A stretch of DNA of 63,678 nucleotides, filler included, from Stramenopiles sp. TOSAG23-6 (Eukaryota): NCBI GenBank assembly GCA_900128565.1. It is 11 parts of 11 records of this genome, joined end to end, with 100 filler letters (N's around TTAATTAATTAA, not from the genome) between each part and the next. Parts side by side here need not be neighbours in the genome. Positions count along the whole stretch, not along the records: positions 37,651 to 43,805 come from LT636763.1; 10 more parts are not named here. The stretch is one strand, 5' to 3'. Both the position numbers and the translations under genes were made by a program. Positions within the stretch are counted from its first letter, which is position 1. Each line of letters opens with the position of its first letter. The notes below the pieces were generated by a model. It saw only the letters and a program-made list of their open reading frames with translations. It searched no databases and was not told where the DNA came from. Of the stretch, positions 23,591 to 59,400 are shown one piece after another.

Positions 23591-23762
23591 TTCAAAGTTT
23601 TAAATAAAAAATAAATATGTCGTAATAATTTATAAAAAATTTAAATTCGGAAGAAATTAAAAAATATAAAATATAGAAAAGTGAAAAAAATATTATGATT
23701 TACACAAACTATTTTATACTACTATATTCTTTATATACTATAACTATGTACTACTGTGATAT

Positions 23763-32927: not shown

Positions 32928-33181
32928 TTCTATCCGGTCGTAAAAGTGCTGGTTAGCACTACACACTACCTGATGATATTCGAGAGTGTGATTTGATTCG
33001 AGAGAAGCAAATGAGCTTACTCTAAATTTCCTAATTTGCTACTTTTTTTCAGCAAGTCAAATTCAAACAAATCGAAAAATGAAACTGTCGCGGTCACAAA
33101 ATAATCGCTGAAGTATTTCATTTAAGTATACCTTTGCTCGTAGAATCTGACAGGTACACTTCTAACTATTAATGTCATATA

Positions 33182-35362
33182 TTGAAATGCAATTTTCGTA
33201 AATCTCTGTATGGAATGCAGGACAATTGTTCGACTAGCGAAAAATACGAAGAAATGCAACCTAAAGAAAATAGATTTTCACAAAAGGATGAACCTAACGA
33301 AAATAATTTCTCACAAAAGGAAGACATGCAACCTAACGAAGATAGTTTCTTAGATAAAGTCTTAGATAAACCTAACGAAGATAAAGTCGTAGATACAGGA
33401 GTCGTTGATATCGATGAAGTACAAGGGCATGATACTGATATAGATACTGATACTGATACAGATACTGATATAGATACGGATCCAGAACATCTCGCTCATG
33501 ATATCCAAAGAGATTCAGAAGATGAATTATGGTATTGGGCAAAGCAGCAAGCTGAAGACCAAGCTAAAATAGAAAAGCAACGCTTAGAGCTAGAAGATAA
33601 AAATCAAACACAAGACAGAGAAGTTACAAACGAATCAGAGAAACAGATACGCCTTGTTGAAAATGATAATATAAATATGATACATTCATTCGAAAAACGC
33701 CTTGTTGAAAATGATAGTATAAATATGATACATTCATTCGAAAAACGCCTTGTTGAAAATGATAATATAAATATGATACATTCATTCGAAATAGATGAAC
33801 TGAGCAATGATACACAGCTAAACGATCCACTCAAAGTAGATGCATTGGATCTCGTAGAACGTAAAAAATATACAGAAAATAATACTACAGAGACCATTAT
33901 TAACACAACTGATATACATTCATCTATATATGAAATAGATGACAAGCATACGAATAAAGATGAAATAGATAGGGAGTATAACCCTAACCCTTATAAAGAT
34001 ATGAGTCCTTTCTCTACTTTTGATATAGTAAATAGTAGATGTAGACCAGATAGAGAAATTAAGTTAGGGTTAGGGTTAGAAAATGATGCCAAACGTAGAG
34101 ACTGTTTTGGTTTAGGAATGAGACAAATTGTACGGATGAAAAAAGAAGAAGAACGAATGAACTCAATAGGAGGACGAGGTTTTAGTCAATATATGAATAA
34201 GTATTTGCAAATGAAAAATAATATTGCCCAAAATAATCAAATTCACCAAAATTATCAAAGTAACAAAAGTAACAAAAATAACATTATAATTCAGAGAAAG
34301 CCAAAATATAAAAATGAAATTATGTCCAGGGTTAAGGTTAGTGATGTACAACGTGATGGTGACCTTAACCCTAATGAAATTTCAAATATTCAAAAAAATA
34401 CATTCACTACCACACTGTTGACACGTAACCCTAATGAAATTCCATTACATCAAAAAAAACAAAAAAAACAAAAAATACAAAAAATACAAAAAATACAAAA
34501 ATATCACCAAAATAAAATACTGGAAAGAAAAACAAATACAAAAAGACAAACTCAAAAAAATAAAGAAGAAATTTGGTTAAGAAAACAAGCTCAGCGCATT
34601 GTCCGTCTTAGAATGATGGAAGATGCTCAACAAAGAAGTATGAACAATGTTCTAAAAACACGAAATCAACGGGTTAGTCGTTTAGTCGCTGCGAATAGAA
34701 AAAAAAAAGTTCAAGTTGCAAAAGTTAAACAGAAGAGAGAAGATGAAAATGCGAAAAAATATTTCAATATGCATCAAAGCCTTTATGGGGATTCATCATC
34801 TATTGAAGCTCGTAGAAATTTCATAAAACTACAAAAGTCAAATAAATGTACAAAACAACGCATGTACGTTTTCATGATAAATTTCAAATATTTTTTTTTT
34901 TGGTTTTCGTACGAAATTCCGTACCTAACATTTTTTTTCTACAATATTTTTTCACAATACATGATACGTGAAGAACGAGCGGCCAACGCTAAACGGAATC
35001 GATTAGCACAACATGCGAGACGTCAAGCAGAAGTTTCGCGTCATCTTACAGAAAAAGAAAAGTATCGGAATTTATTGCATGAAATGAAAAATCGCATGGA
35101 AAAAAGACAGGAAAGACAAAATGCAGTCTCTAGAAGAATTAGTAGAGAAATTGGCGAAAGACGAAAAATACTAAGAATTCGTTCGACGCCTGGACCGGGT
35201 ATCGGAAACAATTCACAACGACAATATAGAAAATTACCATCCCGTAGTATTGCAACTACCTGGAAAAGTACCTTAACCTCTGGAAGTTATAGTCATGAAA
35301 CAGCTAAGCGAGATAAAGGTTGGTTGTACACTAATCCAAAATGCCGAAGAAGACTTGCGTAA
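33182..35362 (+). CDS. Low-complexity coiled-coil protein; in-frame intron 34864-34962
   Basis: 726-aa ORF containing a 99-nt family intron read through as YVFMINFK...FSQYM. The start is probably ATG 33215. Confidence 0.65.
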   Translation: MKCNFRKSLYGMQDNCSTSEKYEEMQPKENRFSQKDEPNENNFSQKEDMQPNEDSFLDKVLDKPNEDKVVDTGVVDIDEVQGHDTDIDTDTDTDTDIDTDPEHLAHDIQRDSEDELWYWAKQQAEDQAKIEKQRLELEDKNQTQDREVTNESEKQIRLVENDNINMIHSFEKRLVENDSINMIHSFEKRLVENDNINMIHSFEIDELSNDTQLNDPLKVDALDLVERKKYTENNTTETIINTTDIHSSIYEIDDKHTNKDEIDREYNPNPYKDMSPFSTFDIVNSRCRPDREIKLGLGLENDAKRRDCFGLGMRQIVRMKKEEERMNSIGGRGFSQYMNKYLQMKNNIAQNNQIHQNYQSNKSNKNNIIIQRKPKYKNEIMSRVKVSDVQRDGDLNPNEISNIQKNTFTTTLLTRNPNEIPLHQKKQKKQKIQKIQKIQKYHQNKILERKTNTKRQTQKNKEEIWLRKQAQRIVRLRMMEDAQQRSMNNVLKTRNQRVSRLVAANRKKKVQVAKVKQKREDENAKKYFNMHQSLYGDSSSIEARRNFIKLQKSNKCTKQRMYVFMINFKYFFFWFSYEIPYLTFFFYNIFSQYMIREERAANAKRNRLAQHARRQAEVSRHLTEKEKYRNLLHEMKNRMEKRQERQNAVSRRISREIGERRKILRIRSTPGPGIGNNSQRQYRKLPSRSIATTWKSTLTSGSYSHETAKRDKGWLYTNPKCRRRLA
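33649..33790 (+). repeat. 48-bp coding tandem repeat, 3 copies (RLVENDNINMIHSFEK)
   Basis: Three near-identical CGCCTTGTTGAAAATGATAATATAAATATGATACATTCATTCGAAAAA units. Confidence 0.9.
34864..34962 (+). mobile_element. Repeated intron family copy (GT-AT), 99 nt
   Basis: AT|GTACG...CAATACAT|G. Confidence 0.85.
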
Positions 35363-37650: not shown

Positions 37651-38452
37651 TTTTTTTTTTTTTTTTTTTTTTTTTAGTTAGTTAGGTACAAAATTTACTA
37701 CAAAAAAAAATTTTAAAAAAATTTAAAAAAAATTTTAAAAAACATACTTTGTGTAAATGTAATACGACTAGTAAGAAATCGAATTTTTTGAGTAATTTTG
37801 ACTTTTTTACTATCTAAAAAGTAATGTACTGCTTCTACATGATTCCGTATAATACTTGTTACTAAAGGTGATCGACTTTTTAATAAGAAAAAATATTGTA
37901 CATTCAAAAATTTGATTTTTTTTGTTAGGTACAAATTTTTCTATAAAAAAAAAAATTACATTTGAAATTCATTATTAGGGTTAGGGTTAACACACATCAT
38001 GATCTTTTTGATTCACACTAACACCAGAGTCTAACAGAAGTTTGATTGTGGGGAAGTGTTTTCGTTTCGCAGCACGATGAAGAGAATTTTCACCTGTACA
38101 AGTGGTGACATTAACATTTGCTCCATTTTCAATTAATAGTTTAATGGCTTCAAAATGGTTTGCACATAGAAGAGGTGTAAAACAATTTGTTGATCGTGCG
38201 TTCACAAGGCTTCCTTTAGATATCAAGTATCTCATCATTTCTACTTGTCCGTGTAAAGCTGCGATATGAAGTGCAGTATAATTCTGTGGGTCTCGAAGAT
38301 TCACGTTGACTTTTTTAAAGAGTAGTAGCTCATCAACTGCTTCGATTGAACCAATCTTTGCCGCATCATGAAGCCTTTTTGTCATGTGATACCAAACATA
38401 CGGTTGTCTCTCGTGAGTATGTGTTGCGTGTACAATTGCAATGAACGCAAAA
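37651..38452 (-). CDS. Ankyrin-repeat protein with signal peptide, spliced and 3'-truncated
   Basis: LHDAAKIG, TALHIAALHG, TPLLCA and SLHRAAKR repeats. Family introns at about 37877-37995 and 37651-37747. The start is approximate. Confidence 0.8.
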
Positions 38453-39796: not shown

Positions 39797-41246
39797 TTAT
39801 TGTATTGAATATGTAGAAAGTTGTACAATTTCCTTTGAAGCACGAAATAATAAAAAAATACCAACAATGGCCCAAATACTTGGAAAAAACACGAAACCTA
39901 ACCAAAATTCAAAAATAATTTTTGGTGTTGTGAAACTTTCACCTGATATAATTTCTTTCATTGTAGGTACATGACCAATACATGGAAATCCTGCAACAAT
40001 TTCACTTAGATAAAAATACCATACACCTAAAATTGATAACATATTAAACATAATTTCTATTGGTATTCTCAAATGTTTAACAAAATGACCAAAATTTTTT
40101 TTTTCATGTTTTTCGTGTTTTTTGTATTTACAATGATATGCAATATATAAAAAAATACCAAATGGACATTGAAATAAAATTTCTTGTAGTGATGTTATAA
40201 ATACTACAGAACCAGCATATGAACATACAATGTAAAAAAATATTTCAGATATTTAAAATTTGTTAGGTATGAAATTTTGTATGAAAAAAAAAAAAATTAA
40301 TTCAAAACAATTTCATTCAAAAAAATTAGGGTTAGGGTTAATAAAACAATACATGAATTATTTGATGGTTTATAGCGTGGATCAAGAGTATTATATTGTG
40401 ACGTCATTAGTGGCCATGTAAAGTGAAACATTTTTTCATTATTTGATATTTATTAGATATTTTAAAGTTTCTTATTGGACATTGAAATAAAGATTGAAAT
40501 TAAATTCGAAATTGAAAAATAAAAATTGAAAATAAATTCGAAATTGAAGACCTACATTGTTGAAATTGTCCTGCAAAGACATCCATCATACTATTAAAAA
40601 AACAACCATTAAATAAATACCATCTTGATATATATATATCAGTTATACTTAATTGAGATTTTTGTGATTTTTGTGTTTTTTGTGTTTTTTGTGTTGTTTG
40701 GTGATAATGATGAGTACAATAAATTGTCAGACAACCAACCAATGACCAAAATAAAAGTGGCCAAGCTGTGATAAAAGAGATGAATTCATGTTTTGTTGCT
40801 AATTGAAAATGATCGTCTCGCCAAATCAGTGGAATAGGAAGAATTGACGCAACGAAAATTGAGGTTGGGTCAATAATGAAACCAAAACAACTAAAAAAAG
40901 GACATTTTTTTTGTTGAATTGCGTTGCTTTCATTAGTATTCACAGTTTTGAAATCGTCCATTGAAGATTTTGAAGATTGTATATTCATATTCTCTTTGTT
41001 TTGTCGTTTACGTAAACGGTAAATAACACTGTTATATTCCGCATCGGATGAGGAATCAAAATCTGAAGAAATTTCCTCATTCATATCATAATCAGCTTCA
41101 GCTTTGCGAAGAGCTTCACGAAGAACAATTGTTTTCTTATTTGCAGGAATTCCTAATGCTTTACATCGCCATTGTAACTGTGCACGAGTCAATTGATCAA
41201 TGTCATCCACTGTGTCAAATTGAGGATTTCTTCTAGAGGATACCAT
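39797..41246 (-). CDS. SAP-like domain plus EBP/EXPERA-like multi-TM protein (introns 40416-40555, 40225-40352)
   Basis: LTRAQLQWRCKALGIPANKKTIVLREAL (SAP-like); WYLFNG...QYNTLDPRY...WAIV (EBP-like). Exons join in frame at AT-ending introns. Confidence 0.65.
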
Positions 41247-41497: not shown

Positions 41498-43805
41498 ATG
41501 GCTGCAAAGCATGGTAATGAGGCTGATTTAAGTGAACCATCCACAAATATTGTTGTTTGTGATAATGGAACTGGCTTTGTACGTTTTTATAACCGTGTTT
41601 GTCCCCCCCTTTATGAATTGTAGTACTATTTCGTCTCTTTGTTACATTAGTTTCACTGTTTAGTTTCCATTTGACTTGTCAACAGTGTACTAACATCTTC
41701 TTTCAATATATAATAACACAAACTTTACAGGTTAAATGCGGATACGCTGGTGATAACTTTCCTCGCCATGAATTTGCATCAATGGTAGGTCGTCCAATGC
41801 TTCGCGCTGAAGAAGGAGATATTGGTGATATCAAATTAAAAGATGTCATGGTCGGCGACGAAGCAGAAAAAGCCAGAAAGTATTTAGAAATTCGATATCC
41901 TGTTGATGAAGGTATTGTAAAACATTGGGAAGATATGGAACATTTGTACGACTACACCTTTCATGATAAACTTAACCTTCCAAGCGTTTGTCAAGGCAAT
42001 CGAATTATGCTGACGGAAGCTCCACTCAATCCAAAAAAAAATAAGGAAAAATTTTGTGAGTATATGTTTGAAAAATATGGATTTGCTAGTATGCAAGTAC
42101 AAACTCAAGCAATGCTTACTTTATATGCACAAGGTTTATTAACTGGTGTTGTTTTGGATTCTGGTGATGGTGTTACTCATGTGGTTGCGGTGTATGATGG
42201 TTATGTCCCTCAACAACTTACTCGTATGTTTTTTTTTTTTTGGGGTTTTGGTACGAAATTTCATACCTAACAAATTTTCAAAATTTTTTATTTTTTTTTC
42301 AAAATTTTATTTTTTTTTCAATTTTGTTTTTATTCTCTCTATAATAATATTTTTTTTTGTTTGTACAACTAACAATATTCATTCATTTTGATAGACTATT
42401 CTACACTAAAGGACGTCTTAATTTAGCTGGTCGGCACGTTACCCGGCACCTCATTGAACAATTACAAATGAGAGGATATGTACGTTTTTTTTTTTTTTTT
42501 TGCATAATTTTTTTTTCGTACGTAATTTTGTACCTAACCAAAAAAAAAAAAAATTGTACAAAAAAAATATTTTTTCATAATATATGCTTTTAATAGCACA
42601 GCTGATTTTGAAACGGTTCGTCGAGTAAAGGAAGATATATGTTATGTAGCATATGATGTAAAAAAAGAAAGACAATTGGCTGAAGAGACGACTGCATGTA
42701 TGTTATTATCATTTTATCATTTATATTTTTTTATATTTTTGAAATTTTTGAAAATTTTTTTTTTGAAATTTTTAAAATTTTAAAATTTTTTTGAATTTTT
42801 GGATGAATCAAATTCGTTTTTTTTTCATCTATCCAATTTCAAGGATCCAAAATTTTAAACACCATTCAATACAATCCTCAACAAATATATACTTTAGAGT
42901 TTTTTTATTTTAGATTCAAAAAAAAAACGTAAATGAATATTTTCATGATTCATTTCAAATTAATTTCAATTTTTTTTTTTTTTTTTTTTCATACGAAATT
43001 TCATACCTAACAAAAAAAAATGTCCAAAAAAAAAAAAAATATTTTTTCACAGTATTGTAATGAAAGAGTATAAATTACCAGATGGACGAATCATTACTGC
43101 TGGGCGAGAACGATTTGAAGTAGCTGAATTGATGTTTACACCTGAAAATGGAGGTGTTACTGGAGATGGTGTGTCTGATATGATGTATGTTTTTTTTTTT
43201 GATTTCGTGTTTTTTTTTAAATATTTTTTTCATACGAAATTTTGTACGTAACAAAAAATAATAATATTGTACAATATTTTTCAAAATACATATTTAATAT
43301 GATTCAATCAGCGGAAATTGATTTAAGAATGGATCTGTATAAACATATTGTGTTATCAGGCGGATCTACTATGTACGTTATTATTATTATTATAATTGTT
43401 TTTTTCATATATTTTTTTGTACAAAAAATTTCAAAAAAAAGTTAAATTTTTTTTTTTTTTTAGATTTTTTTTTTTTTTAGAATTTTTTTTTTTTTTTGTA
43501 TACCAAATAATATTTCTAAAAAAATGTAATACTATACATTATTTTTAAACAATACATGTTTCCTGGTTTTCCAACACGTGTTGAAAAAGATATGAAAACG
43601 CGATATTTAAATGAAATTTTGCATGGTGATAAAAGGAAATTGAGTAAATTCAGATTAGGTATCGAAGATCCACCACGAAGGAAAAATATGTACGTTTTTT
43701 TATTTCATGATGAATTTCAAATTTTTTTTTTTTTTTTTGTATGAAATTTTCGTACTAAAAAAAAAAATTTTTTATTTTTTTTTTTTTTTTACCCGAAATT
43801 TTTTT
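41498..43805 (+). CDS. ARP2: Actin-related protein 2, 7 introns, 3'-truncated
   Basis: [70 protein letters not shown]. Introns: 41579-41730 (GT-AG), 42224-42411 (GT-AG), 42480-42585 (GT-AT), 42698-43057 (GT-TG), 43185-43291 (GT-AT), 43373-43557 (GT-AT), and one starting at 43690. Confidence 0.95.
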
Positions 43806-43905: not shown

Positions 43906-44641
43906 TTTTGGAAAAATATTTCAAAAAAAATTCGTTAGGTACAAAATTTCGTATGAAAAATAAATTAGAAATTGAAAAAAAAAATAAAACATACATGTGT
44001 TGTACTTACTTCTGAGTCCTTGGATAGTGAAACTCCGCCTCGAGTAAACTTACGTCCCGTTGATGTATTGTGAAAAATATTTTTTTTTCGTAAAAAAAAC
44101 TCGTTAGGTACGAAGTTTGGTACAAAAAAAATAAATTCGAAATTGATAATGAAAACGTACACCTTCCGAGCATGATTGGTTTCCCATCAAGGCGAGGTTT
44201 TAATTTCCAAGTCCTGTCCGTATATGGACCCTCAATGCATTTCAAATGTACATCAAATATACCCCTTGTAATGTTTGCTCTAATACTTGCGTTATTTTTA
44301 GAATCACGCGAGTCAGCTAATACACCCAAAGCAATATCTCGTTGGCGCCCAAATTCGTTCCGGAAAAACTCAATTTGGGCCTCTGTTCGAGCGGTAAGAC
44401 TTCCAATCAAAGATTCTGTATACGCAGCAAGGTATTCCTCAACTGTTGCATTCTTTGGACATTCACGAGTTGCCCTTGCCATAGCATCACGCATAACCAC
44501 ATTAGACGAAGCTCCTGATGAAGAAGTAGAAACACAACACCCAGCCGTTAAGGATGGCACTGTTGTGCTATTAATTATATTGCGCGTATTATTATTTTCA
44601 GATCCCCTTCTCCTTCTACTTTTCACTACTGTATCTTGCAT
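43906..44641 (-). CDS. FHA-domain protein, 3'-truncated (introns 44063-44160, 43906-43994)
   Basis: LKCIEGP...IMLGR|STG...SLSKDSEVSTTH matches the FHA GR...S..H signature. Confidence 0.8.
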
Positions 44642-45067
44642 ATTGTTGAATTAATCTATTTTGTAGCGATCTCGTATAATCTAAATTGCACTGAAGAAAG
44701 AAGAGAAAGATTCACCAAGAAAAAGTGAACAACTTGTCATTCGAAATTTCGAAATTATCGCAAAAAAATTTAATCTCAAAAATTTTCGATTTATAGGTAC
44801 CGGGTACACACGGCACACTTTCATTTTTGCTATTTTTTCATGACATGATGGCCGTAAAGCTGAATCGATTGTTGATGTTCGTGACATGACATGATTGGTC
44901 TGACACTCGGCAAGACGCTGTCCACTTTAGTTTTGGTTAACATTGATTTCTATTTATTTGTTTGCGATATTTTTGGAGAATAGCTTTTCATAGTTGTTAT
45001 TTTGTTGATAGCCCTATACATAAGAGTTACTGTGTCATTCGTATAGACTTCTTTGGCACTTGATACA

Positions 45068-47577
45068 ATGGAAGCTGCAGATCAATCCTTCAAGACGAAA
45101 CCCAACAAAGAAAAGAGCGCAATAAAAGCGGAGTGTTCTTTGACTTCGGGACCATCGGAATTCACTATGCCACCAACATCGAATAGGCATCTTCCGACTG
45201 CAGCGGTAAAAATTTTGAAAGGTACGTAACTTCATTAAATATTCGTTTTCGCCGGGTCAGCTTTGTGTTTTCGTGTGCTTTTGTTTCTTAATTTCGTTTT
45301 TCATTCTGCTTGATATAGATTAGTCGTTCTCATTTTCATTATCTTTCATCATGTATATATTTAAAATCACAGATTGGATGATGTCCGAAGAGCATTTTAT
45401 GCACCCGTATCCTTCAGATGCTGAAAAGCAGGAGTTGGTTGCGAAAACAGGAATCCGCCTGAAACAGCTCAACAATTGGTTCACCAACGCTCGGAAACGT
45501 ATCTGGCGCCCAGTTTTTGATTCACGTTTAGCTGCGCAGTCAAAATCACCACATTCTAATAATCCGTGTATAATATCTCCAATGAACAAAATGCCTGCTG
45601 GTGCCTCGAATAATTCTCCTTTTGGTTGGTCTATGCCAAGACGTCGTAGTGAAGTGGATGCTTTGTATGGGCTTACAGTTTTAGGCAGCGGCGAGACAGG
45701 AAATTCATCAGCATATTCTACAGCATCTGGTTCTACGACACCTTTAAAACAAAACGAAGCGCCCAATGTAATTCCCGGTATATATATGCAGAACATGCGC
45801 CAATGCTTTAAAAATGGTCCCGTAGGAAATATTTTTTTTTTAGTATTTTTTTTTTTCATACGAAATTTTGTACCTAACAATTTTTTTAAGTTTTTTTTTG
45901 AAATATTTTTCCAAAATACATTCCGTGAACTCTGCTACTATTGCTGAGTATGATGCGAAAGGTACAAAAACAATCGATGGTAAAACGAAACCATTGACCT
46001 GTGATACGAATTCCGTACCTAATTATCAAAATACACCCAAGAAAGAAAATATCGGGAGTATTTCGAGCTGTACTAATTTGGTCAAAAATGACAATTCTCA
46101 GTTACCTGTGACGCCAATAAATAATACAACTGTTGCAATGAATAAAGTCGCCATTCCGTTCACACCAACTGTACCCTACAGTAGTCCACTCACTAAGGAG
46201 AGGATTGAAAGTTTTTTTCAAAGTAACATTCAGCATTCTCCTAATGTAAATAATATGGAACATAATGTGTCTAAAGATGGCGATGCAGCTGCAAAGACTT
46301 TTCCGACACCGGCTAATGTTTCTACACAAACTAAAGTCTTGTCTCATCTTAACCAAAATCAGGTTACATCTAAATTTGATAATACATTGAATTCATCTAG
46401 AGATGTTGAATCATCTAGTAATCATTTGAGTAAGACAGTACTTACGTGTAAGACGAGTGAAGAATCTCCAATGGGACATACTGGAAATATTCCTCGAAGT
46501 GTTACTCCACAAACTGCTAACTCTCTTAATGGAAATGTTACCTTTTGTGTTACTCCTCCGATTACGATGACATCATCTTCAAATACAAATATCTCTGAGG
46601 TTTCTTCAACAACATCAGTATCTAAGAAAACTTCACCTCAGCTTCCTCCAGGCAAGAAACGATGCCTCTCGCTATCTGATGGAAGTAACATATATGTATC
46701 TTATGCGGGTGAAAAAAGATCTAAAAAATGTGATAGTAGTAATCCATCAAGTGATAACTGGGATCCTTTTGCAACTTTGATGGCTTCGGCTGTTGTCCAA
46801 CCTATAACCTCAACAGATTCCCAAGAGTTAAAAAACAATGATGAAAATGTGAAAGAAAATACATCATCTAAGAATTCAACTTTAGTATCTACAAAGAAGA
46901 GATTATCGATAGATGTTGAAGCCGCAAAAAGTCGAATTAAACGAAATCGCGTCTCCAGTAGTGAAATTGGCGCTGATATGCTTGTACGTATGTCGTCATT
47001 ATCTGAATCGCCCAATCTTGCTGCTTCAAAAACTGCCACCCATTCAAATGCAAGTGTTCCAATTTTGATAAATCCTTCATTAAATGATAATCTGGGTACA
47101 AAAGATGTCACACAACTTGCTGCTGGGTATTCAAAGCTAAATGAAAGCCAATTATCAGAATTATCAAAATCAATATTAGAGGGGCAATTACCAACAAATA
47201 CGCCCTTTGTAAATATGCCAGTGTTTGATAAAAATGGAAATCCAGTTTTCCATTTTTCAGAATTCCCACCAATGCCTTCTCAATTTAAGACACCAAAACC
47301 GAAGAAAGTGTATGTTTTATATGAATTTCTATTTTTTTTTCATACGAAATTTCGTACCTAACGAATTTTTTTTGAAATATTTTTCAAAATACAACTTTCA
47401 CCACTACCTTTTCGTGCACATTTACAAGCTTTTCTAAATTTAGCTAAACAAAAATCTATTTCTGATGGGCTCTCATCGGCGTTATTAATTATGCGTGATG
47501 AGGATAATAAGAGCAAAGATAAAATTCGGGGAATAGCAAAAANTCGCAANTCAAAAAAAANAAAAANAANGCGCATA
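45068..47577 (+). CDS. TALE-class homeodomain transcription factor (introns 45222-45372 GT-AG, 45822-45921 GT-AT, 47310 to about 47394); 3' end uncertain
   Basis: LPTAAVKILK|DWMMSEEHFMHPYPSDAEKQEL...QLNNWFTNARKRIW, with the PYP loop. Confidence 0.85.
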
Positions 47578-47654
47578 ANAACAAAAATGATTCAACACAA
47601 ATTTTATCAAAATCAGAAGAGCGAAAAAAATTTCATTTATTAGCGATTCAGAAA

Positions 47655-48392
47655 ATGTCGCAATTAGAATTTCGTGCATTTTTTCATACTTGTTCAACTG
47701 CGGTGTGTTTTATTTTTGTTCAATTTCGATTTGTTTTTTTTGACGAAATTTCGTACCTAACAAATTTTACAAAAAAACATATTTTTTCACAATATATGTA
47801 ATGTATATAATACCATTGTTTGTCACATTACTATTTGGACTACTAGTTTATCACTTCAATTTTGCTAGAGAGANTCAATTGTCTATGAAATATGATGATA
47901 TCGTCGCATCGAAAACATCGAATAATAATTCGACTTGTANGTTTTCAAAATATTTTTCAAAATATTTTTACCTATATTTTTTNACTATGAAAATTCCAAA
48001 CCTAAGAAATTATTTTACTACAGAAAATATTTTTTCACCACCCATATTACTCCAACAACTCCAGCCATTCAGAGATATCCCAGAGTATGCTTTCATCAGA
48101 TGNTTTTGTAGATGATTCAATGAAACATCCTTCATTTCATTTTATACTAAAAAAGGTAATGTTCTGGAGCAGTCATTCGAATAAAATGGCAAATTCTCAA
48201 TCCTTCGAAGAAATTACTGAAAATGAAATTTTTGTTATGGAAAGAAATGCAAAGAAATTGATTTCCCTATTGGCTATACCTATGAATATTTATCAATCAA
48301 TATTTGGTTTTGCTCTTTATTGGTGTATTGCAAATTCTGCNATGCTTTCTTTTTTTGGTGTCGTTTTTTATTTGTATTCGAATAAAAATTGA
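47655..48392 (+). CDS. Hypothetical membrane protein, low-quality sequence (intron 47703-47797, GT-AT)
   Basis: MSQLEFRAFFHTCSTA|VMYIIPLF joins in frame across a family copy. Ns and a frame break lie downstream. Confidence 0.4.
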
Positions 48393-48598
48393 GACTTTTT
48401 GAAAAATTTCAGTATATTTTTGAAAATTTATAATTAATACAAAGATATCAGATCAGCTGTTCACCACGCCTTATTTTTTAAAATAATTGAATCACTCTCT
48501 TACAATGCAAATGTTATTCACTCTTTTTGAAATTCGTCTATTTTATAGAGATTGTATCAAATTTGTATATCAAATTTGTATACNAAACAAAAAATATA

Positions 48599-49273
48599 TC
48601 AAACCTGATTCATCGGGTTCTCTGGACTCTTTTGAAATTCCTTGAACACCATTTGCTTGATTTGAGCAAGCCTGAGACCTTTATTTTCTTTGCGCAACTC
48701 AGGAATTCGTCTTTCTTCGAAGGCTTTGAATGCAGCTTTCCTTCTTCTTTCCGGATGAGCATCAGGAACAGCTCCCTGACCTTTAGCTGCAGTTATTGCA
48801 CCCAAAGCACCATCAATACCAGTACCATGAAACTCGCCACGTGCTTCCTCTTCAGCTCTTTGTCGATTTAAATTTTTGTGTATTGGAATTGGTTTATCTT
48901 TTTTCTTCTTTTTCTTTGCCAACTTTCCAAACGTTGACTTTTTCTGTGGTTTATAGTCTGCAAAAAGTGAGGCCGCATTATTTTTCTGAGCCTTACGAGC
49001 CTTACCCTTGGGTTTCTTTGCCTTTGAATTAATCTCATCTTCATCCTCCAGCAATTGCTTCTTCAATCTTCTGCGTTCCATCAGATCAGCATGCCGCTGT
49101 GCTTCAGCTTCTCGCTTTGCGTCGCCAGTTACGTTCGAACCGACTTTCCAACTAGCATCTTCTGCTTTTTGCTTTTTGGCAAGGGCTACAGCATCTTTTT
49201 CTCTTTGCGAAGCTTTCTTTTGCGCNTTCGCCTTCAAACCGCGAGTGTCTGGGCCAGATTGTTTCCTACCCAT
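48599..49273 (-). CDS. CCDC124: Coiled-coil domain-containing protein 124 (Lso2/Oxs1-like)
   Basis: HPERRRKAAFKAFEERRIPELRKENKGLRLAQIKQMVFKEFQKSPENPMNQ. Confidence 0.9.
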   Translation of the reverse strand: MGRKQSGPDTRGLKAXAQKKASQREKDAVALAKKQKAEDASWKVGSNVTGDAKREAEAQRHADLMERRRLKKQLLEDEDEINSKAKKPKGKARKAQKNNAASLFADYKPQKKSTFGKLAKKKKKKDKPIPIHKNLNRQRAEEEARGEFHGTGIDGALGAITAAKGQGAVPDAHPERRRKAAFKAFEERRIPELRKENKGLRLAQIKQMVFKEFQKSPENPMNQV

Positions 49274-49555
49274 CAAGTATATTTCAATCTGTTTGCATTA
49301 CTTCTTATATTTTCATTACTAGTTGATGACACGCGAGACAAAAAACTACAGTAAAGAGTTCGTTAGAAGACGTTCGAGACTCGAGAGAGAGACTATCTAG
49401 TATATCATTCTTGAAAAAAACACGAAATCTCGATAATTTGATTATTTTTTATATTTTAATGAAGCAGAATGTAATNAATTTATTCAAATGTTATGCATTT
49501 ATTTTTTCTCTTATATTTACTTCTTTATATTTTCTCTTATATTACATCTTTATAA

Positions 49556-50060
49556 TTATATTTTTGGAGGGGAAAGATATACAGACACAGAGCACATCGG
49601 ACATTTTGCAGTATGGGGTTTTAAAGTGACTACTTTATTTTGTATTGTACAAGAAGGACAAATCCAAACATGTTCAAAATCATATCCAGATTGAACTGTA
49701 AAGGATATTGTAGTTCTCTCTGATTCCCTCGCATCTGTTACAAGTTTTTGAAAATGCATTGTGCCATTATTGACCTCTTTACCATTAACAGACAGAAAAA
49801 TATCAAGTAATTTAAGCCCGTAATGCTCAGCTAATAAAGGTTTTCCGTATTCATTTTTTTTCAAGTGAGTTATTGTACATTTAGTGGAATTGTTTGTTTT
49901 CACATCAGTGACTACCATACCAAATGGCCCACGGTGTAATGGACAAAAGATTTTTGATGTCTTTGGTCGCGTAATCCAATGAACAGTTTTGTCCGTTGAA
50001 AATTTTTGATTCATACTTGATGATTGTAAAGGTTGTAGAGGTTGTTTAGTTAAAACTGGC
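49556..50060 (-). CDS. C-terminus of a protein with a PDZ-like segment and a RanBP2-type zinc finger
   Basis: GPFGMVV...GLKLLDIFLSVNG and WICPSCTIQN...CPMC. 5'-truncated. Confidence 0.6.
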
Positions 50061-50160: not shown

Positions 50161-53100
50161 TTTTGGAAAAATATTTCAAAAAAAATTCGTTAGGTACAAA
50201 ATTTCGTATGAAAAATAAATTAGAAATTGAAAAAAAAAATAAAACATACATGTGTTGTACTTACTTCTGAGTCCTTGGATAGTGAAACTCCGCCTCGAGT
50301 AAACTTACGTCCCGTTGATGTATTGTGAAAAATATTTTTTTTTCGTAAAAAAAACTCGTTAGGTACGAAGTTTGGTACAAAAAAAATAAATTCGAAATTG
50401 ATAATGAAAACGTACACCTTCCGAGCATGATTGGTTTCCCATCAAGGCGAGGTTTTAATTTCCAAGTCCTGTCCGTATATGGACCCTCAATGCATTTCAA
50501 ATGTACATCAAATATACCCCTTGTAATGTTTGCTCTAATACTTGCGTTATTTTTAGAATCACGCGAGTCAGCTAATACACCCAAAGCAATATCTCGTTGG
50601 CGCCCAAATTCGTTCCGGAAAAACTCAATTTGGGCCTCTGTTCGAGCGGTAAGACTTCCAATCAAAGATTCTGTATACGCAGCAAGGTATTCCTCAACTG
50701 TTGCATTCTTTGGACATTCACGAGTTGCCCTTGCCATAGCATCACGCATAACCACATTAGACGAAGCTCCTGATGAAGAAGTAGAAACACAACACCCAGC
50801 CGTTAAGGATGGCACTGTTGTGCTATTAATTATATTGCGCGTATTATTATTTTCAGATCCCCTTCTCCTTCTACTTTTCACTACTGTATCTTGCATATTG
50901 TTGAATTAATCTATTTTGTAGCGATCTCGTATAATCTAAATTGCACTGAAGAAAGAAGAGAAAGATTCACCAAGAAAAAGTGAACAACTTGTCATTCGAA
51001 ATTTCGAAATTATCGCAAAAAAATTTAATCTCAAAAATTTTCGATTTATAGGTACCGGGTACACACGGCACACTTTCATTTTTGCTATTTTTTCATGACA
51101 TGATGGCCGTAAAGCTGAATCGATTGTTGATGTTCGTGACATGACATGATTGGTCTGACACTCGGCAAGACGCTGTCCACTTTAGTTTTGGTTAACATTG
51201 ATTTCTATTTATTTGTTTGCGATATTTTTGGAGAATAGCTTTTCATAGTTGTTATTTTGTTGATAGCCCTATACATAAGAGTTACTGTGTCATTCGTATA
51301 GACTTCTTTGGCACTTGATACAATGGAAGCTGCAGATCAATCCTTCAAGACGAAACCCAACAAAGAAAAGAGCGCAATAAAAGCGGAGTGTTCTTTGACT
51401 TCGGGACCATCGGAATTCACTATGCCACCAACATCGAATAGGCATCTTCCGACTGCAGCGGTAAAAATTTTGAAAGGTACGTAACTTCATTAAATATTCG
51501 TTTTCGCCGGGTCAGCTTTGTGTTTTCGTGTGCTTTTGTTTCTTAATTTCGTTTTTCATTCTGCTTGATATAGATTAGTCGTTCTCATTTTCATTATCTT
51601 TCATCATGTATATATTTAAAATCACAGATTGGATGATGTCCGAAGAGCATTTTATGCACCCGTATCCTTCAGATGCTGAAAAGCAGGAGTTGGTTGCGAA
51701 AACAGGAATCCGCCTGAAACAGCTCAACAATTGGTTCACCAACGCTCGGAAACGTATCTGGCGCCCAGTTTTTGATTCACGTTTAGCTGCGCAGTCAAAA
51801 TCACCACATTCTAATAATCCGTGTATAATATCTCCAATGAACAAAATGCCTGCTGGTGCCTCGAATAATTCTCCTTTTGGTTGGTCTATGCCAAGACGTC
51901 GTAGTGAAGTGGATGCTTTGTATGGGCTTACAGTTTTAGGCAGCGGCGAGACAGGAAATTCATCAGCATATTCTACAGCATCTGGTTCTACGACACCTTT
52001 AAAACAAAACGAAGCGCCCAATGTAATTCCCGGTATATATATGCAGAACATGCGCCAATGCTTTAAAAATGGTCCCGTAGGAAATATTTTTTTTTTAGTA
52101 TTTTTTTTTTTCATACGAAATTTTGTACCTAACAATTTTTTTAAGTTTTTTTTTGAAATATTTTTCCAAAATACATTCCGTGAACTCTGCTACTATTGCT
52201 GAGTATGATGCGAAAGGTACAAAAACAATCGATGGTAAAACGAAACCATTGACCTGTGATACGAATTCCGTACCTAATTATCAAAATACACCCAAGAAAG
52301 AAAATATCGGGAGTATTTCGAGCTGTACTAATTTGGTCAAAAATGACAATTCTCAGTTACCTGTGACGCCAATAAATAATACAACTGTTGCAATGAATAA
52401 AGTCGCCATTCCGTTCACACCAACTGTACCCTACAGTAGTCCACTCACTAAGGAGAGGATTGAAAGTTTTTTTCAAAGTAACATTCAGCATTCTCCTAAT
52501 GTAAATAATATGGAACATAATGTGTCTAAAGATGGCGATGCAGCTGCAAAGACTTTTCCGACACCGGCTAATGTTTCTACACAAACTAAAGTCTTGTCTC
52601 ATCTTAACCAAAATCAGGTTACATCTAAATTTGATAATACATTGAATTCATCTAGAGATGTTGAATCATCTAGTAATCATTTGAGTAAGACAGTACTTAC
52701 GTGTAAGACGAGTGAAGAATCTCCAATGGGACATACTGGAAATATTCCTCGAAGTGTTACTCCACAAACTGCTAACTCTCTTAATGGAAATGTTACCTTT
52801 TGTGTTACTCCTCCGATTACGATGACATCATCTTCAAATACAAATATCTCTGAGGTTTCTTCAACAACATCAGTATCTAAGAAAACTTCACCTCAGCTTC
52901 CTCCAGGCAAGAAACGATGCCTCTCGCTATCTGATGGAAGTAACATATATGTATCTTATGCGGGTGAAAAAAGATCTAAAAAATGTGATAGTAGTAATCC
53001 ATCAAGTGATAACTGGGATCCTTTTGCAACTTTGATGGCTTCGGCTGTTGTCCAACCTATAACCTCAACAGATTCCCAAGAGTTAAAAAACAATGATGAA

Positions 53101-56100
53101 AATGTGAAAGAAAATACATCATCTAAGAATTCAACTTTAGTATCTACAAAGAAGAGATTATCGATAGATGTTGAAGCCGCAAAAAGTCGAATTAAACGAA
53201 ATCGCGTCTCCAGTAGTGAAATTGGCGCTGATATGCTTGTACGTATGTCGTCATTATCTGAATCGCCCAATCTTGCTGCTTCAAAAACTGCCACCCATTC
53301 AAATGCAAGTGTTCCAATTTTGATAAATCCTTCATTAAATGATAATCTGGGTACAAAAGATGTCACACAACTTGCTGCTGGGTATTCAAAGCTAAATGAA
53401 AGCCAATTATCAGAATTATCAAAATCAATATTAGAGGGGCAATTACCAACAAATACGCCCTTTGTAAATATGCCAGTGTTTGATAAAAATGGAAATCCAG
53501 TTTTCCATTTTTCAGAATTCCCACCAATGCCTTCTCAATTTAAGACACCAAAACCGAAGAAAGTGTATGTTTTATATGAATTTCTATTTTTTTTTCATAC
53601 GAAATTTCGTACCTAACGAATTTTTTTTGAAATATTTTTCAAAATACAACTTTCACCACTACCTTTTCGTGCACATTTACAAGCTTTTCTAAATTTAGCT
53701 AAACAAAAATCTATTTCTGATGGGCTCTCATCGGCGTTATTAATTATGCGTGATGAGGATAATAAGAGCAAAGATAAAATTCGGGGAATAGCAAAAANTC
53801 GCAANTCAAAAAAAANAAAAANAANGCGCATAANAACAAAAATGATTCAACACAAATTTTATCAAAATCAGAAGAGCGAAAAAAATTTCATTTATTAGCG
53901 ATTCAGAAAATGTCGCAATTAGAATTTCGTGCATTTTTTCATACTTGTTCAACTGCGGTGTGTTTTATTTTTGTTCAATTTCGATTTGTTTTTTTTGACG
54001 AAATTTCGTACCTAACAAATTTTACAAAAAAACATATTTTTTCACAATATATGTAATGTATATAATACCATTGTTTGTCACATTACTATTTGGACTACTA
54101 GTTTATCACTTCAATTTTGCTAGAGAGANTCAATTGTCTATGAAATATGATGATATCGTCGCATCGAAAACATCGAATAATAATTCGACTTGTANGTTTT
54201 CAAAATATTTTTCAAAATATTTTTACCTATATTTTTTNACTATGAAAATTCCAAACCTAAGAAATTATTTTACTACAGAAAATATTTTTTCACCACCCAT
54301 ATTACTCCAACAACTCCAGCCATTCAGAGATATCCCAGAGTATGCTTTCATCAGATGNTTTTGTAGATGATTCAATGAAACATCCTTCATTTCATTTTAT
54401 ACTAAAAAAGGTAATGTTCTGGAGCAGTCATTCGAATAAAATGGCAAATTCTCAATCCTTCGAAGAAATTACTGAAAATGAAATTTTTGTTATGGAAAGA
54501 AATGCAAAGAAATTGATTTCCCTATTGGCTATACCTATGAATATTTATCAATCAATATTTGGTTTTGCTCTTTATTGGTGTATTGCAAATTCTGCNATGC
54601 TTTCTTTTTTTGGTGTCGTTTTTTATTTGTATTCGAATAAAAATTGAGACTTTTTGAAAAATTTCAGTATATTTTTGAAAATTTATAATTAATACAAAGA
54701 TATCAGATCAGCTGTTCACCACGCCTTATTTTTTAAAATAATTGAATCACTCTCTTACAATGCAAATGTTATTCACTCTTTTTGAAATTCGTCTATTTTA
54801 TAGAGATTGTATCAAATTTGTATATCAAATTTGTATACNAAACAAAAAATATATCAAACCTGATTCATCGGGTTCTCTGGACTCTTTTGAAATTCCTTGA
54901 ACACCATTTGCTTGATTTGAGCAAGCCTGAGACCTTTATTTTCTTTGCGCAACTCAGGAATTCGTCTTTCTTCGAAGGCTTTGAATGCAGCTTTCCTTCT
55001 TCTTTCCGGATGAGCATCAGGAACAGCTCCCTGACCTTTAGCTGCAGTTATTGCACCCAAAGCACCATCAATACCAGTACCATGAAACTCGCCACGTGCT
55101 TCCTCTTCAGCTCTTTGTCGATTTAAATTTTTGTGTATTGGAATTGGTTTATCTTTTTTCTTCTTTTTCTTTGCCAACTTTCCAAACGTTGACTTTTTCT
55201 GTGGTTTATAGTCTGCAAAAAGTGAGGCCGCATTATTTTTCTGAGCCTTACGAGCCTTACCCTTGGGTTTCTTTGCCTTTGAATTAATCTCATCTTCATC
55301 CTCCAGCAATTGCTTCTTCAATCTTCTGCGTTCCATCAGATCAGCATGCCGCTGTGCTTCAGCTTCTCGCTTTGCGTCGCCAGTTACGTTCGAACCGACT
55401 TTCCAACTAGCATCTTCTGCTTTTTGCTTTTTGGCAAGGGCTACAGCATCTTTTTCTCTTTGCGAAGCTTTCTTTTGCGCTTTCGCCTTCAAACCGCGAG
55501 TGTCTGGGCCAGATTGTTTCCTACCCATCAAGTATATTTCAATCTGTTTGCATTACTTCTTATATTTTCATTACTAGTTGATGACACGCGAGACAAAAAA
55601 CTACAGTAAAGAGTTCGTTAGAAGACGTTCGAGACTCGAGAGAGAGACTATCTAGTATATCATTCTTGAAAAAAACACGAAATCTCGATAATTTGATTAT
55701 TTTTTATATTTTAATGAAGCAGAATGTAATNAATTTATTCAAATGTTATGCATTTATTTTTTCTCTTATATTTACTTCTTTATATTTTCTCTTATATTAC
55801 ATCTTTATAATTATATTTTTGGAGGGGAAAGATATACAGACACAGAGCACATCGGACATTTTGCAGTATGGGGTTTTAAAGTGACTACTTTATTTTGTAT
55901 TGTACAAGAAGGACAAATCCAAACATGTTCAAAATCATATCCAGATTGAACTGTAAAGGATATTGTAGTTCTCTCTGATTCCCTCGCATCTGTTACAAGT
56001 TTTTGAAAATGCATTGTGCCATTATTGACCTCTTTACCATTAACAGACAGAAAAATATCAAGTAATTTAAGCCCGTAATGCTCAGCTAATAAAGGTTTTC

Positions 56101-56315
56101 CGTATTCATTTTTTTTCAAGTGAGTTATTGTACATTTAGTGGAATTGTTTGTTTTCACATCAGTGACTACCATACCAAATGGCCCACGGTGTAATGGACA
56201 AAAGATTTTTGATGTCTTTGGTCGCGTAATCCAATGAACAGTTTTGTCCGTTGAAAATTTTTGATTCATACTTGATGATTGTAAAGGTTGTAGAGGTTGT
56301 TTAGTTAAAACTGGC
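50161..56315. repeat. Second copy of contig 43906-50060 (FHA 50161-50896, TALE from 51323, CCDC124 54854-55528, ZnF 55811-56315)
   Basis: Offset +6255; identical ORF track apart from one resolved N. Confidence 0.95.
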
Positions 56316-56415: not shown

Positions 56416-59400
56416 TTTTGGAAAAATATTTCAAAAAAAATTCGTTAGGTACAAAATTTCGTATGAAAAATAAATTAGAAATTGAAAAAAAAAATAAAAC
56501 ATACATGTGTTGTACTTACTTCTGAGTCCTTGGATAGTGAAACTCCGCCTCGAGTAAACTTACGTCCCGTTGATGTATTGTGAAAAATATTTTTTTTTCG
56601 TAAAAAAAACTCGTTAGGTACGAAGTTTGGTACAAAAAAAATAAATTCGAAATTGATAATGAAAACGTACACCTTCCGAGCATGATTGGTTTCCCATCAA
56701 GGCGAGGTTTTAATTTCCAAGTCCTGTCCGTATATGGACCCTCAATGCATTTCAAATGTACATCAAATATACCCCTTGTAATGTTTGCTCTAATACTTGC
56801 GTTATTTTTAGAATCACGCGAGTCAGCTAATACACCCAAAGCAATATCTCGTTGGCGCCCAAATTCGTTCCGGAAAAACTCAATTTGGGCCTCTGTTCGA
56901 GCGGTAAGACTTCCAATCAAAGATTCTGTATACGCAGCAAGGTATTCCTCAACTGTTGCATTCTTTGGACATTCACGAGTTGCCCTTGCCATAGCATCAC
57001 GCATAACCACATTAGACGAAGCTCCTGATGAAGAAGTAGAAACACAACACCCAGCCGTTAAGGATGGCACTGTTGTGCTATTAATTATATTGCGCGTATT
57101 ATTATTTTCAGATCCCCTTCTCCTTCTACTTTTCACTACTGTATCTTGCATATTGTTGAATTAATCTATTTTGTAGCGATCTCGTATAATCTAAATTGCA
57201 CTGAAGAAAGAAGAGAAAGATTCACCAAGAAAAAGTGAACAACTTGTCATTCGAAATTTCGAAATTATCGCAAAAAAATTTAATCTCAAAAATTTTCGAT
57301 TTATAGGTACCGGGTACACACGGCACACTTTCATTTTTGCTATTTTTTCATGACATGATGGCCGTAAAGCTGAATCGATTGTTGATGTTCGTGACATGAC
57401 ATGATTGGTCTGACACTCGGCAAGACGCTGTCCACTTTAGTTTTGGTTAACATTGATTTCTATTTATTTGTTTGCGATATTTTTGGAGAATAGCTTTTCA
57501 TAGTTGTTATTTTGTTGATAGCCCTATACATAAGAGTTACTGTGTCATTCGTATAGACTTCTTTGGCACTTGATACAATGGAAGCTGCAGATCAATCCTT
57601 CAAGACGAAACCCAACAAAGAAAAGAGCGCAATAAAAGCGGAGTGTTCTTTGACTTCGGGACCATCGGAATTCACTATGCCACCAACATCGAATAGGCAT
57701 CTTCCGACTGCAGCGGTAAAAATTTTGAAAGGTACGTAACTTCATTAAATATTCGTTTTCGCCGGGTCAGCTTTGTGTTTTCGTGTGCTTTTGTTTCTTA
57801 ATTTCGTTTTTCATTCTGCTTGATATAGATTAGTCGTTCTCATTTTCATTATCTTTCATCATGTATATATTTAAAATCACAGATTGGATGATGTCCGAAG
57901 AGCATTTTATGCACCCGTATCCTTCAGATGCTGAAAAGCAGGAGTTGGTTGCGAAAACAGGAATCCGCCTGAAACAGCTCAACAATTGGTTCACCAACGC
58001 TCGGAAACGTATCTGGCGCCCAGTTTTTGATTCACGTTTAGCTGCGCAGTCAAAATCACCACATTCTAATAATCCGTGTATAATATCTCCAATGAACAAA
58101 ATGCCTGCTGGTGCCTCGAATAATTCTCCTTTTGGTTGGTCTATGCCAAGACGTCGTAGTGAAGTGGATGCTTTGTATGGGCTTACAGTTTTAGGCAGCG
58201 GCGAGACAGGAAATTCATCAGCATATTCTACAGCATCTGGTTCTACGACACCTTTAAAACAAAACGAAGCGCCCAATGTAATTCCCGGTATATATATGCA
58301 GAACATGCGCCAATGCTTTAAAAATGGTCCCGTAGGAAATATTTTTTTTTTAGTATTTTTTTTTTTCATACGAAATTTTGTACCTAACAATTTTTTTAAG
58401 TTTTTTTTTGAAATATTTTTCCAAAATACATTCCGTGAACTCTGCTACTATTGCTGAGTATGATGCGAAAGGTACAAAAACAATCGATGGTAAAACGAAA
58501 CCATTGACCTGTGATACGAATTCCGTACCTAATTATCAAAATACACCCAAGAAAGAAAATATCGGGAGTATTTCGAGCTGTACTAATTTGGTCAAAAATG
58601 ACAATTCTCAGTTACCTGTGACGCCAATAAATAATACAACTGTTGCAATGAATAAAGTCGCCATTCCGTTCACACCAACTGTACCCTACAGTAGTCCACT
58701 CACTAAGGAGAGGATTGAAAGTTTTTTTCAAAGTAACATTCAGCATTCTCCTAATGTAAATAATATGGAACATAATGTGTCTAAAGATGGCGATGCAGCT
58801 GCAAAGACTTTTCCGACACCGGCTAATGTTTCTACACAAACTAAAGTCTTGTCTCATCTTAACCAAAATCAGGTTACATCTAAATTTGATAATACATTGA
58901 ATTCATCTAGAGATGTTGAATCATCTAGTAATCATTTGAGTAAGACAGTACTTACGTGTAAGACGAGTGAAGAATCTCCAATGGGACATACTGGAAATAT
59001 TCCTCGAAGTGTTACTCCACAAACTGCTAACTCTCTTAATGGAAATGTTACCTTTTGTGTTACTCCTCCGATTACGATGACATCATCTTCAAATACAAAT
59101 ATCTCTGAGGTTTCTTCAACAACATCAGTATCTAAGAAAACTTCACCTCAGCTTCCTCCAGGCAAGAAACGATGCCTCTCGCTATCTGATGGAAGTAACA
59201 TATATGTATCTTATGCGGGTGAAAAAAGATCTAAAAAATGTGATAGTAGTAATCCATCAAGTGATAACTGGGATCCTTTTGCAACTTTGATGGCTTCGGC
59301 TGTTGTCCAACCTATAACCTCAACAGATTCCCAAGAGTTAAAAAACAATGATGAAAATGTGAAAGAAAATACATCATCTAAGAATTCAACTTTAGTATCT

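Follow-up and report, generated by a model that had tools for sequence, protein, structure and literature searches.

Introns ending in AT or TG in the ARP2 gene of a stramenopile and the repeat family to which they belong

Few signals in eukaryotic gene expression are as constant as the AG acceptor. The ARP2 gene of Stramenopiles sp. TOSAG23-6 raises the question of whether one pre-mRNA can need both AG and non-AG acceptors, as an initial annotation of its DNA had proposed. The gene lies at 41498-43689 on the + strand of a joined stretch of 63,678 bases (the window, along which all positions are counted), on a contig (37651-43805) whose end truncates it. Of its six complete introns, two are GT-AG, three GT-AT and one GT-TG. 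We consider it likely that the non-AG introns are transposon-like "introner" copies, removed by a major-type spliceosome with tolerance for acceptors other than AG. The host is taken to be an uncultured, heterotrophic marine stramenopile of the MAST-3 type, known from single-cell assemblies. The protein closest to ARP2 exon 2 was the transcript-derived P0005 (89%), followed by P0044, and further relatives were marine sequences and oomycete ARP2. The answer bears on how splice sites are chosen and on the accuracy of public gene models for this organism.

Exon joining in ARP2 transcripts

A read search returned 18 runs with small shares of ARP2 words, 16 of them recorded as RNA. The four best runs (X1 to X4) were aligned to the whole contig at 92% likeness. 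They are metatranscriptomes of polyadenylated RNA from two studies and at most three samples, and consist of assembled contigs, not raw reads. These transcript contigs joined the exons at the proposed non-AG sites. GT..AG, GT..TG and AT-ending joints all occurred among them, in agreement with the proposal that a single ARP2 pre-mRNA needs AG as well as non-AG acceptors. Four non-AG junctions (introns 3 to 6) were verified by RNA in this way.

Intron 4 (42698-43057, 360 nucleotides [nt]) is the one that ends in TG. Its joint, 42697>43058, was present in 4/4 runs with an ambiguity of 0 and sides of 65-113 letters. This composite intron has the 5′ end GTATGT, a core of the repeat family described below at 42992-43011, and a 3′ block ending in TATTTTTTCACAGTATTG. 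A CAG at -5 was bypassed; its use would give GCA TTA TTG TAA, a stop. The TG end keeps the ETTAL..MKEY stretch, and the junction between exon 4 (42586-42697, ending in ETTA) and exon 5 (43058-43184) was colinear with the homologues as ETTA/LMKEY (the slash marks the junction here and below).

The three other verified introns end in AT. Intron 5 (43185-43291, 107 nt) is a family copy of the form GTATGT ... CAAAATACAT. Its joint, 43182>43290, had an ambiguity of 2 and was seen in X1 (side 60) and X2 (side 24); it reads AT..AC as printed and GT..AT at +2, and a shift of the assigned intron by -2 would likewise read AT..AC. Intron 6 (43373-43557, 185 nt; GTACGT ... AAACAATACAT) belongs to the family as a degenerate or composite copy whose core is not intact. 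The joint 43370>43556, with an ambiguity of 4, was seen in X1 (side 80) and X4 (side 33), and again reads AT..AC as printed and GT..AT at +2. Intron 3 (42480-42585, 106 nt; GTACGT ... CATAATATAT), also a family copy, was absent from the joint table. Record 22 of X4 (307 nt) nevertheless covers 42412-42474, one letter, 42582-42697 and 43058-43157, and its length is exactly that expected if 106 nt are taken out, either 42480-42585 or any of four equivalent registers, because the aligner had put the repeated ATAT on the intron side. Registers -1 to -4 yield an identical mRNA, and none of them reads AT..AC. The same record spans introns 3 and 4 in one contig.

Of the GT-AG introns, intron 2 (42224-42411, 188 nt) was seen as joint 42223>42412 in X3 and X4, with sides of 35 and 27. 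Its 5′ end and core (42250-42271) are those of the family, but its 3′ part is diverged and ends in ACACTAAAG; a GATAG upstream of the used AG was bypassed in the RNA contigs. Intron 1 (41579-41730, 152 nt) is conventional, with GTACGT ... GTACTAAC ... 36 nt ... CAG and no family core. In RNA, its removal left only a 14-letter loose end before 41731 in X2, equal to the last 14 letters of exon 1 (41498-41578; ATG ... GGCTTT). The model is colinear with homologues across it. Exon 2 (41731-42223) was covered by RNA contigs over its whole length, and exon 3 (42412-42479, ending in RGY) and exons 4 and 5, like exon 6 (43292-43372) and exon 7 (43558-43689), were supported by RNA contigs and by homologue alignment. 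Exon 7 ends in PPRRKN, at AT/GT, and is followed by the start of intron 7 (43690-43805; GTACGT and the core TGTATGAAATTTTCGTACTAA), which reaches the contig end, with Ns from 43806. The last ~40 ARP2 codons are missing as a consequence.

The spliced model encodes 364 residues with no stop, is 87% identical to P0005, and is gapless at all six junctions against 9/9 ARP2 homologues. The junctions that had been placed at AT ends, RGY/AFN (colinear with 9/9 homologues), DMI/FN (colinear as DMI/FNMI) and STM/FPG (colinear as STM/FPGF), agreed with both the RNA contigs and the homologues. Two features had escaped the initial annotation: intron 2, although it ends in AG, carries the family 5′ part and core, and the gene is truncated by a contig end.

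The RNA pieces differed from the window by 0-8 letters per 60-437 nt (98-100% identity), which places their source in the same population or one very close to it. One further joint, 37955>40501 (2545 skipped, TT..AT, X3 only, side 25), was rejected as a repeat artefact, both of its ends lying in family or telomere-like repeats.

The repeat family and its copies in other genes

The window is not one stretch of chromosome. It consists of ~6.2-kb contigs chained by N44-TTAATTAATTAA-N44 linkers (6186-6285, 12467-12566, 18743-18842 and onward, spaced ~6.26 kb), so that neighbours across a linker are not genomic neighbours. The contigs 43906-50060, 50161-56315 and 56416-62570 are near-identical down to single-N positions, and 12567-18742 and 18843-25018 are likewise near-identical, with single Ns in a matching pattern. 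The unique sequence amounts to ~45 kb, at a GC content of 22-38% in the window, and family copies were counted after duplicate contigs had been dropped.

Family copies measure ~90-107 nt. They open with GTAYGT, continue with a palindromic core and a T-tract, and close with the 3′ block ...YCAMAATACAT. The core, CGTACGAAATTTYGTAC, carries a branch-like box, TACCTAAC, at its 3′ side. Over the whole window, the core TACGAAATTTTGTACCTAAC had 42 matches at <=3 mismatches against 0.01 expected, and the 3′ block GAAATATTTTTCCAAAATACAT had 14 against 0.03, which excludes chance. Once duplicate contigs were dropped, 30 unique core matches were left, or ~1 per 1.5 kb of unique sequence. Their host genes include ARP2, NUDIX, 2-oxoglutarate (2OG) oxygenase, acetyl-CoA transporter, Sel1, DENN and homeobox genes and others. 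When 15 full-length copies were aligned, the layout was GTAYGTT, a T-rich part with CAATTTCGA, a T-run, CGTACGAAATTTYGTACCTAAC, a variable spacer and GAAATATTTTTYCAMAATACAT. Pairwise identity ranged from 50 to 93% (mean, 65%), and the last alignment column was common to 15/15 copy ends. The GTACGT and GTACTAAC of the conventional intron 1 match the family's 5′ site and branch box.

The 3′ ends were read by eye in 27 of the 30 unique copies, the other three being cut by contig ends. Nineteen ended in AT, two in TG, four in AG and one in AA or CA (47343), and one end was unclear (40262). AT is the consensus 3′ end of the family; it also ends intron 6 and two other copies without an intact core. 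The TG-ending copies are intron 4 and 6457-6556. Among those ending in AG, intron 2 is confirmed by RNA, and the ends at 12184, 37924 and 9304 are probable readings, two of these copies (12184 and 9304) being composite. In intron 2, the last 22 nt (GATAGACTATTCTACACTAAAG) resemble the family 3′ block when compared by eye. Its AG sits 9 nt past TTCT, and it may be an old family copy whose last letter turned into G.

A frame test was applied to 23 copies, 3 of which were set aside for contig ends or a very short exon. The family GT was in frame with the family 3′ end in 16/20 testable copies, and open sense-strand frames lay beside 20/20 copies (40/40 flanks), against 23/40 flanks on the antisense strand. 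In copy 11941-12041, the family GT is out of frame with the long upstream open reading frame (ORF), and a GTGTAT upstream, at 11900, is in frame.

Beyond ARP2, four AT-ending junctions were confirmed by homology. Removal of the 90-nt copy in the NUDIX gene (25333-25422, + strand; GTATGT ... ATACAT) leaves the Pfam NUDIX profile contiguous between positions 43 and 44: the last residue of the upstream exon is profile position 43, and the fourth downstream residue is position 47, so that the first is 44. The copy in the 2OG-Fe(II) oxygenase gene (24228-24317, - strand, 90 nt), which is duplicated at ~17952-18041, gives HSDYGSITLLTT/DGTVGLEA, gapless against 13/13 homologues. Because its 5′ flank is CT, only GT..AT or TG..CA can be read there and AT..AC is impossible. 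In the gene for a secreted Cys-rich repeat protein, the 100-nt copy at 6701-6800 (- strand; GTACGT ... ATACAT) yields APDEN/DGPGIMWHN, gapless in the 5/5 BLASTP alignments seen. The fourth is the 90-nt copy in the acetyl-CoA transporter gene (junction c; 2385-2474, - strand; GTATAT ... ATACAT), whose junction NIFLRA/FIYRLPI was gapless against 11/11 homologues. The second TG-ending copy (6457-6556, - strand, 100 nt; GTACAT ... CACAATATTG) is in frame, with a putative junction.

Two of these host genes gave further observations. The Cys-rich protein gene (6286-7358, - strand) has a signal-peptide-like start and repeated Cys modules (HRC..F.G.....ECxNGLP...C......HCG.D.DW); the protein had no Pfam match and had 41 relatives in a representative library, many with 2-3 repeats. 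In the last transporter exon as read (1810-2384, - strand), 12 residues (GISYAPCSYWAG) are spliced out in the public model P0199, and this stretch is probably one more intron, conventional and outside the family.

Environmental RNA could in principle come from other alleles than those in the window. If the elements were unspliced and the window genes were dead, element-ridden alleles or copies, the RNA would stem from alleles or paralogues lacking the elements, whose transcripts look in their joined sequence just like precisely spliced ones. Such RNA would fit matches at 98-100% that are not always 100%, and presence/absence polymorphism of introners is described in other algae (PMC9860276). 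However, there are ~30 unique copies in ~45 kb, in many genes, all with intact in-frame flanking exons, and a genome with essentially every gene disrupted would not be viable. The copies are always sense-oriented and carry splice signals, and the TG of intron 4 is not a copy of the AT flank, yet its joint is exact. We consider this explanation extremely improbable.

RNA contigs also lay on the family core itself, at 43213-43418 and 42284-42318, with a summed depth of 202 in X3 and many loose ends. This deep cover indicates that element-containing RNAs from many loci are present in the polyadenylated libraries; they could be pre-mRNAs, retained introns or stable excised introns. In a metagenome scan for the core, a single locus was found, contig L001, with a related copy ACAT/GTATGT...CACAATACAT/GG; one locus does not suffice to study insertion sites.

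The 3′ cut and the pathway of removal

If AG does not mark the acceptor, what does? The cut lay 9 nt past the last pyrimidine of the T/C tract in 19/20 copies, a count that is partly circular for unverified copies, as their ends had been set by alignment; among verified copies, the figure was 7/8, with intron 6 at 11 nt. Introns 3 and 4, which are verified by RNA and have altered terminal letters, keep the cut in the family's last alignment column. In intron 3, which ends in TTTTTTCATAATATAT (...ATATAT), the cut ignores a CAT at -7 as well as TATs, one at -2 and others farther upstream. Intron 4 ends in TTTTTTCACAGTATTG (...TATTG), and use of the CAG at -5 that was passed over would lead to the stop two codons on. 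Insofar as it is testable, the earlier suggestion of a cut dictated by position instead of by the dinucleotide is borne out; in consensus copies, the positional cue is not wholly separable from reading of the terminal heptamer AATACAT, which is conserved. Two simpler rules were ruled out: taking the first YAG or YAT after the branch box fails on the CAT and TATs of intron 3 and on the CAG of intron 4, and the branch box does not serve as a ruler, since its distance to the cut varies from 32 to 47 nt.

We favor the following account. The family would have spread through the genes of a MAST-3-type stramenopile, each copy bringing its own signals for the major spliceosome. The element would supply a yeast-like GUAYGU 5′ site and a branch-like box, UACCUAAC, as in the conventional intron 1, and the first splicing step would be ordinary, with TACCTAAC as the putative branch site. 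Exon ligation would then take place at the element's last nucleotide, 9 nt past the pyrimidine tract and 32-47 nt past the branch box, with the last two letters being indifferent: AT as a rule, TG as a variant, and AG in a few copies. The conserved 3′ block may position this cut through a factor binding the pyrimidine tract or through second-step factors, and the spliceosome would have to tolerate U at -1 or U at -2. Of the features of U2-type introns, the 5′ GTAYGT and the branch-like TACCTAAC were found, whereas the AG was not (19 AT, 2 TG and 1 AA/CA of 27). The family introns behave as U2-type introns except for the acceptor.

The printed form of some joints suggests another reading. In U12-type introns, the 3′ site is set by distance from the branch site. 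The present family resembles them in that its cut seems to be set by distance from an upstream landmark while the dinucleotide matters little, and U12-type introns tolerate varied 3′ ends, including GT-AT termini (PMC1557818). The family introns with ambiguous joints could then be AT-AC introns in register -2 (/ATGTAYGT...AATAC/), spliced as U2-type AT-AC or as U12-type introns. The joints of introns 5 and 6 were printed as AT..AC (ambiguity 2 and 4), AT precedes GT in 18/28 copies, and the consensus ends in ...TAC AT. The introns with less ambiguous borders speak against it, however. In intron 4, GT..TG was found with ambiguity 0 in 4/4 runs, and the -2 register would be GC/TGTAATG, contrary to the RNA; intron 3 has no AT..AC register; and the 2OG oxygenase copy (24228-24317), with its CT flank, was gapless against 13/13 homologues. 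As for the U12 type, 15/15 aligned copies start with GT, +4 is T or C in 14/15, and ATCC occurs in none, so that no family copy has the U12 5′ site [AG]TATCCTT. The five unique matches to that site in the window lie elsewhere, in about the number expected by chance on our estimate, with no TCCTTAAC-like box downstream. In the family, there is no TCCTTAAC box 10-15 nt upstream of the cut; the branch-like box lies 32-47 nt from it, and a long T-tract is present. The family does not belong to the U12 type, and we regard AT-AC splicing as very unlikely.

Removal might also bypass the spliceosome, by programmed DNA elimination of the kind that acts on the internal eliminated sequences of ciliates or by an RNA-structure-guided endonuclease/ligase pathway as proposed for the nonconventional introns of euglenids and the introners of Amoebophrya. 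The short palindromic ends (ATGTA...TACAT) with their 2-nt repeat recall excision sites, the place of the cut depends on position instead of AG, and another mechanism has been suggested to be needed by other noncanonical introns derived from transposable elements (PMC7789003). However, the elements are present in the assembled DNA, their boundaries are not TA...TA, and their strict GTAYGT and TACCTAAC boxes are shared with the conventional intron 1. No conserved end-to-end RNA pairing was found when RNAalifold was run on 15 copies (-0.38 kcal/mol, 5 pairs, 0 covarying), and in the consensus of these copies the A at -6 is constant although position +4, its supposed partner, changes between C and T. 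Such a pathway therefore seems to us most improbable.

Returning to splicing of introner copies by a tolerant major-type spliceosome, several points besides the circularity mentioned above weigh against it. Environmental RNA contigs at 98-100% identity cannot by themselves tell element-bearing from empty alleles. The spliceosomal nature of the removal is deduced from splice signals. Support for the TG-ending copy 6457-6556 goes no further than frame compatibility, as downstream AG sites are also in frame and the linker of its homologues is variable. At junction a (2880-2999) of the transporter gene, the alignments with 11/11 homologues show a gap of one residue, and the degenerate copy b (~2631-2736) can be placed in several registers, one of them GT-AG of homologue-like length. 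As to the origin of the elements, 10/28 copies are without the AT flank and no locus-specific duplication extends beyond AT, which makes a target-site duplication indistinguishable from a target preference. The window ORFs yielded no transposase. Scans of the window with Rfam and for transfer RNA genes returned nothing, small nuclear RNA genes included.

A bolder version would make GU-AU a third natural class of spliceosomal introns. In this lineage, the commonest intron class would have abandoned AG as its ligation signal, and a dedicated ruler (a factor or a small RNA) would bind the conserved 3′ block UAUUUUUYCAMAAUAC to place the cut 9 nt past the pyrimidine tract. Jointly with this, the intron class would have co-evolved with the transposon and would not reflect mere sloppy second-step proofreading. 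We hold this joint reading to be doubtful.

Origin, relation to known introns and public gene models

With 5′ ends assigned by eye, AT formed the last two exon letters before the GT in 18/28 copies; the background frequency of this dinucleotide is 0.10 (P = 7e-12). Together with its flank, the element reads AT/GTA...TAC AT/, with a 5-bp palindromic terminus. This arrangement fits insertion of a putative DNA transposon at AT with duplication of the AT. The intron would then equal the element plus one AT, and its removal would restore the mRNA and the reading frame exactly. The structure of the composite copies (introns 4 and 6, 12184 and 9304) suggests insertion into older copies.

Introner elements were reportedly described by Huff et al. 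2016. Introners are miniature inverted-repeat transposable element (MITE)-like, transposon-derived spliceosomal introns of Micromonas, Aureococcus and many aquatic protists (PMC9860276 and PMC11282704). Like them, the present family consists of many near-identical short introns in unrelated genes, with the splice site(s) carried by the element, a short border repeat by which removal restores the mRNA, and nested or composite copies. Introners of the form AGgy...xyag pose the same ambiguity between target-site duplication and target preference (PMC9860276), which the ATgt...acat family shares. The introners described in the available parts of these two papers use GY-AG borders; in this family, by contrast, the border dinucleotide is AT and the acceptor AT or TG.

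Noncanonical borders in transposon-derived introns are described for Fritillaria, Amoebophrya, Polarella and euglenids (PMC11282704 and PMC7789003). The tunicate Fritillaria borealis has MITE-derived non-GT-AG introns, a host-adapted U2-type spliceosome and a minority of old GT-AG introns (PMC11282704, on Henriet et al. 2019). Our family is similar in having putatively transposon-derived introns with non-GT-AG borders alongside GT-AG introns. In Fritillaria, however, both ends are noncanonical (AG-AC and AG-AT being the commonest), whereas here GTAYGT and a yeast-like branch box are kept and only the acceptor departs. The introns of Amoebophrya and euglenids are also repeated, occur in marine protists, have non-AG ends and short direct border repeats, and defeat GT-AG-only prediction (PMC7789003 and PMC11282704). 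They lack preferred dinucleotides and rely on pairing of their termini or on inverted repeats of 8-20 nt, and Amoebophrya seems to have no U1 (PMC7789003). Unlike them, the present family has a strong consensus at each end, no conserved pairing, and a 5′ site that looks U1/U6-dependent.

The searched literature, exclusive of supplementary files, held no account of introners or of introns ending in AT for any MAST lineage. In the available text, MAST lineages are unmentioned in PMC9860276 ("mast", 0 occurrences), splice sites are unmentioned in PMC5778133 and in a 2026 bioRxiv preprint on single-amplified genomes, and "introns" has 0 occurrences in PMC8163842. New here is the combination of a strict canonical donor and branch box with an AT acceptor as the family consensus, in a stramenopile lineage. 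The link between transposon-born introns and relaxed splice-site rules would thereby be extended to a heterotrophic stramenopile, and the odd acceptor would have a simple origin, the AT target of a transposon replacing AG. A perfect yeast-like 5′ site and branch box, with ligation after AT or TG past a nearby CAG, would also let second-step site choice be probed directly.

The public gene models were affected by these introns. P0044 (eukprot GSMAST32.ASY1.ANO1.1635.1) is visibly the gene model of the ARP2 locus, and P0121 and P0199 are the models.1043.1 and.1463.1 of the same set (eukprot GSMAST32.ASY1.ANO1). P0044 deviates at each non-AG ARP2 intron, giving RGY----VPDFETV, ETTACIIVMKEY, DMI-(13 missing)-MDLYKH and a read-through after STMY + NMY. 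P0121 is 10 residues short at the 2OG oxygenase junction, and P0199 is 15 residues short at the transporter junction 2385-2474. All three models examined were thus wrong at every AT- or TG-ending family intron checked: 10-15 residues were skipped, introns were read into, or distant AG sites were chosen. At ~1 per 1.5 kb, these introns have probably brought systematic errors into protein catalogues and reference sets in which this lineage is represented.

Telomere-like repeats were also noted near family members. Two introns of the ARP2 contig that are related to the family (GTGTGTTAACCCTAACCCTAA... and GTATTGTTTTATTAACCCTAACCCTAA...) each carry, ~10 nt inward from the 5′ end, two units of TTAGGG/CCCTAA, at 37975-37986 and at 40326-40337 (+ strand; the gene strand reads CCCTAA), and a telomere-like repeat also lies near the family copy on L001 (~2250-2330). 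Exact telomere-like 12-mers numbered 3 in the window, against 0 expected. Finally, at 33980-34080 (+ strand), AACCCTAACCC and GTTAGGGTTAGGGTTAG, ~70 nt apart, form an inverted telomere-like pair inside the long ORF 33173-35362, which could be another small inverted-repeat element lying in frame.

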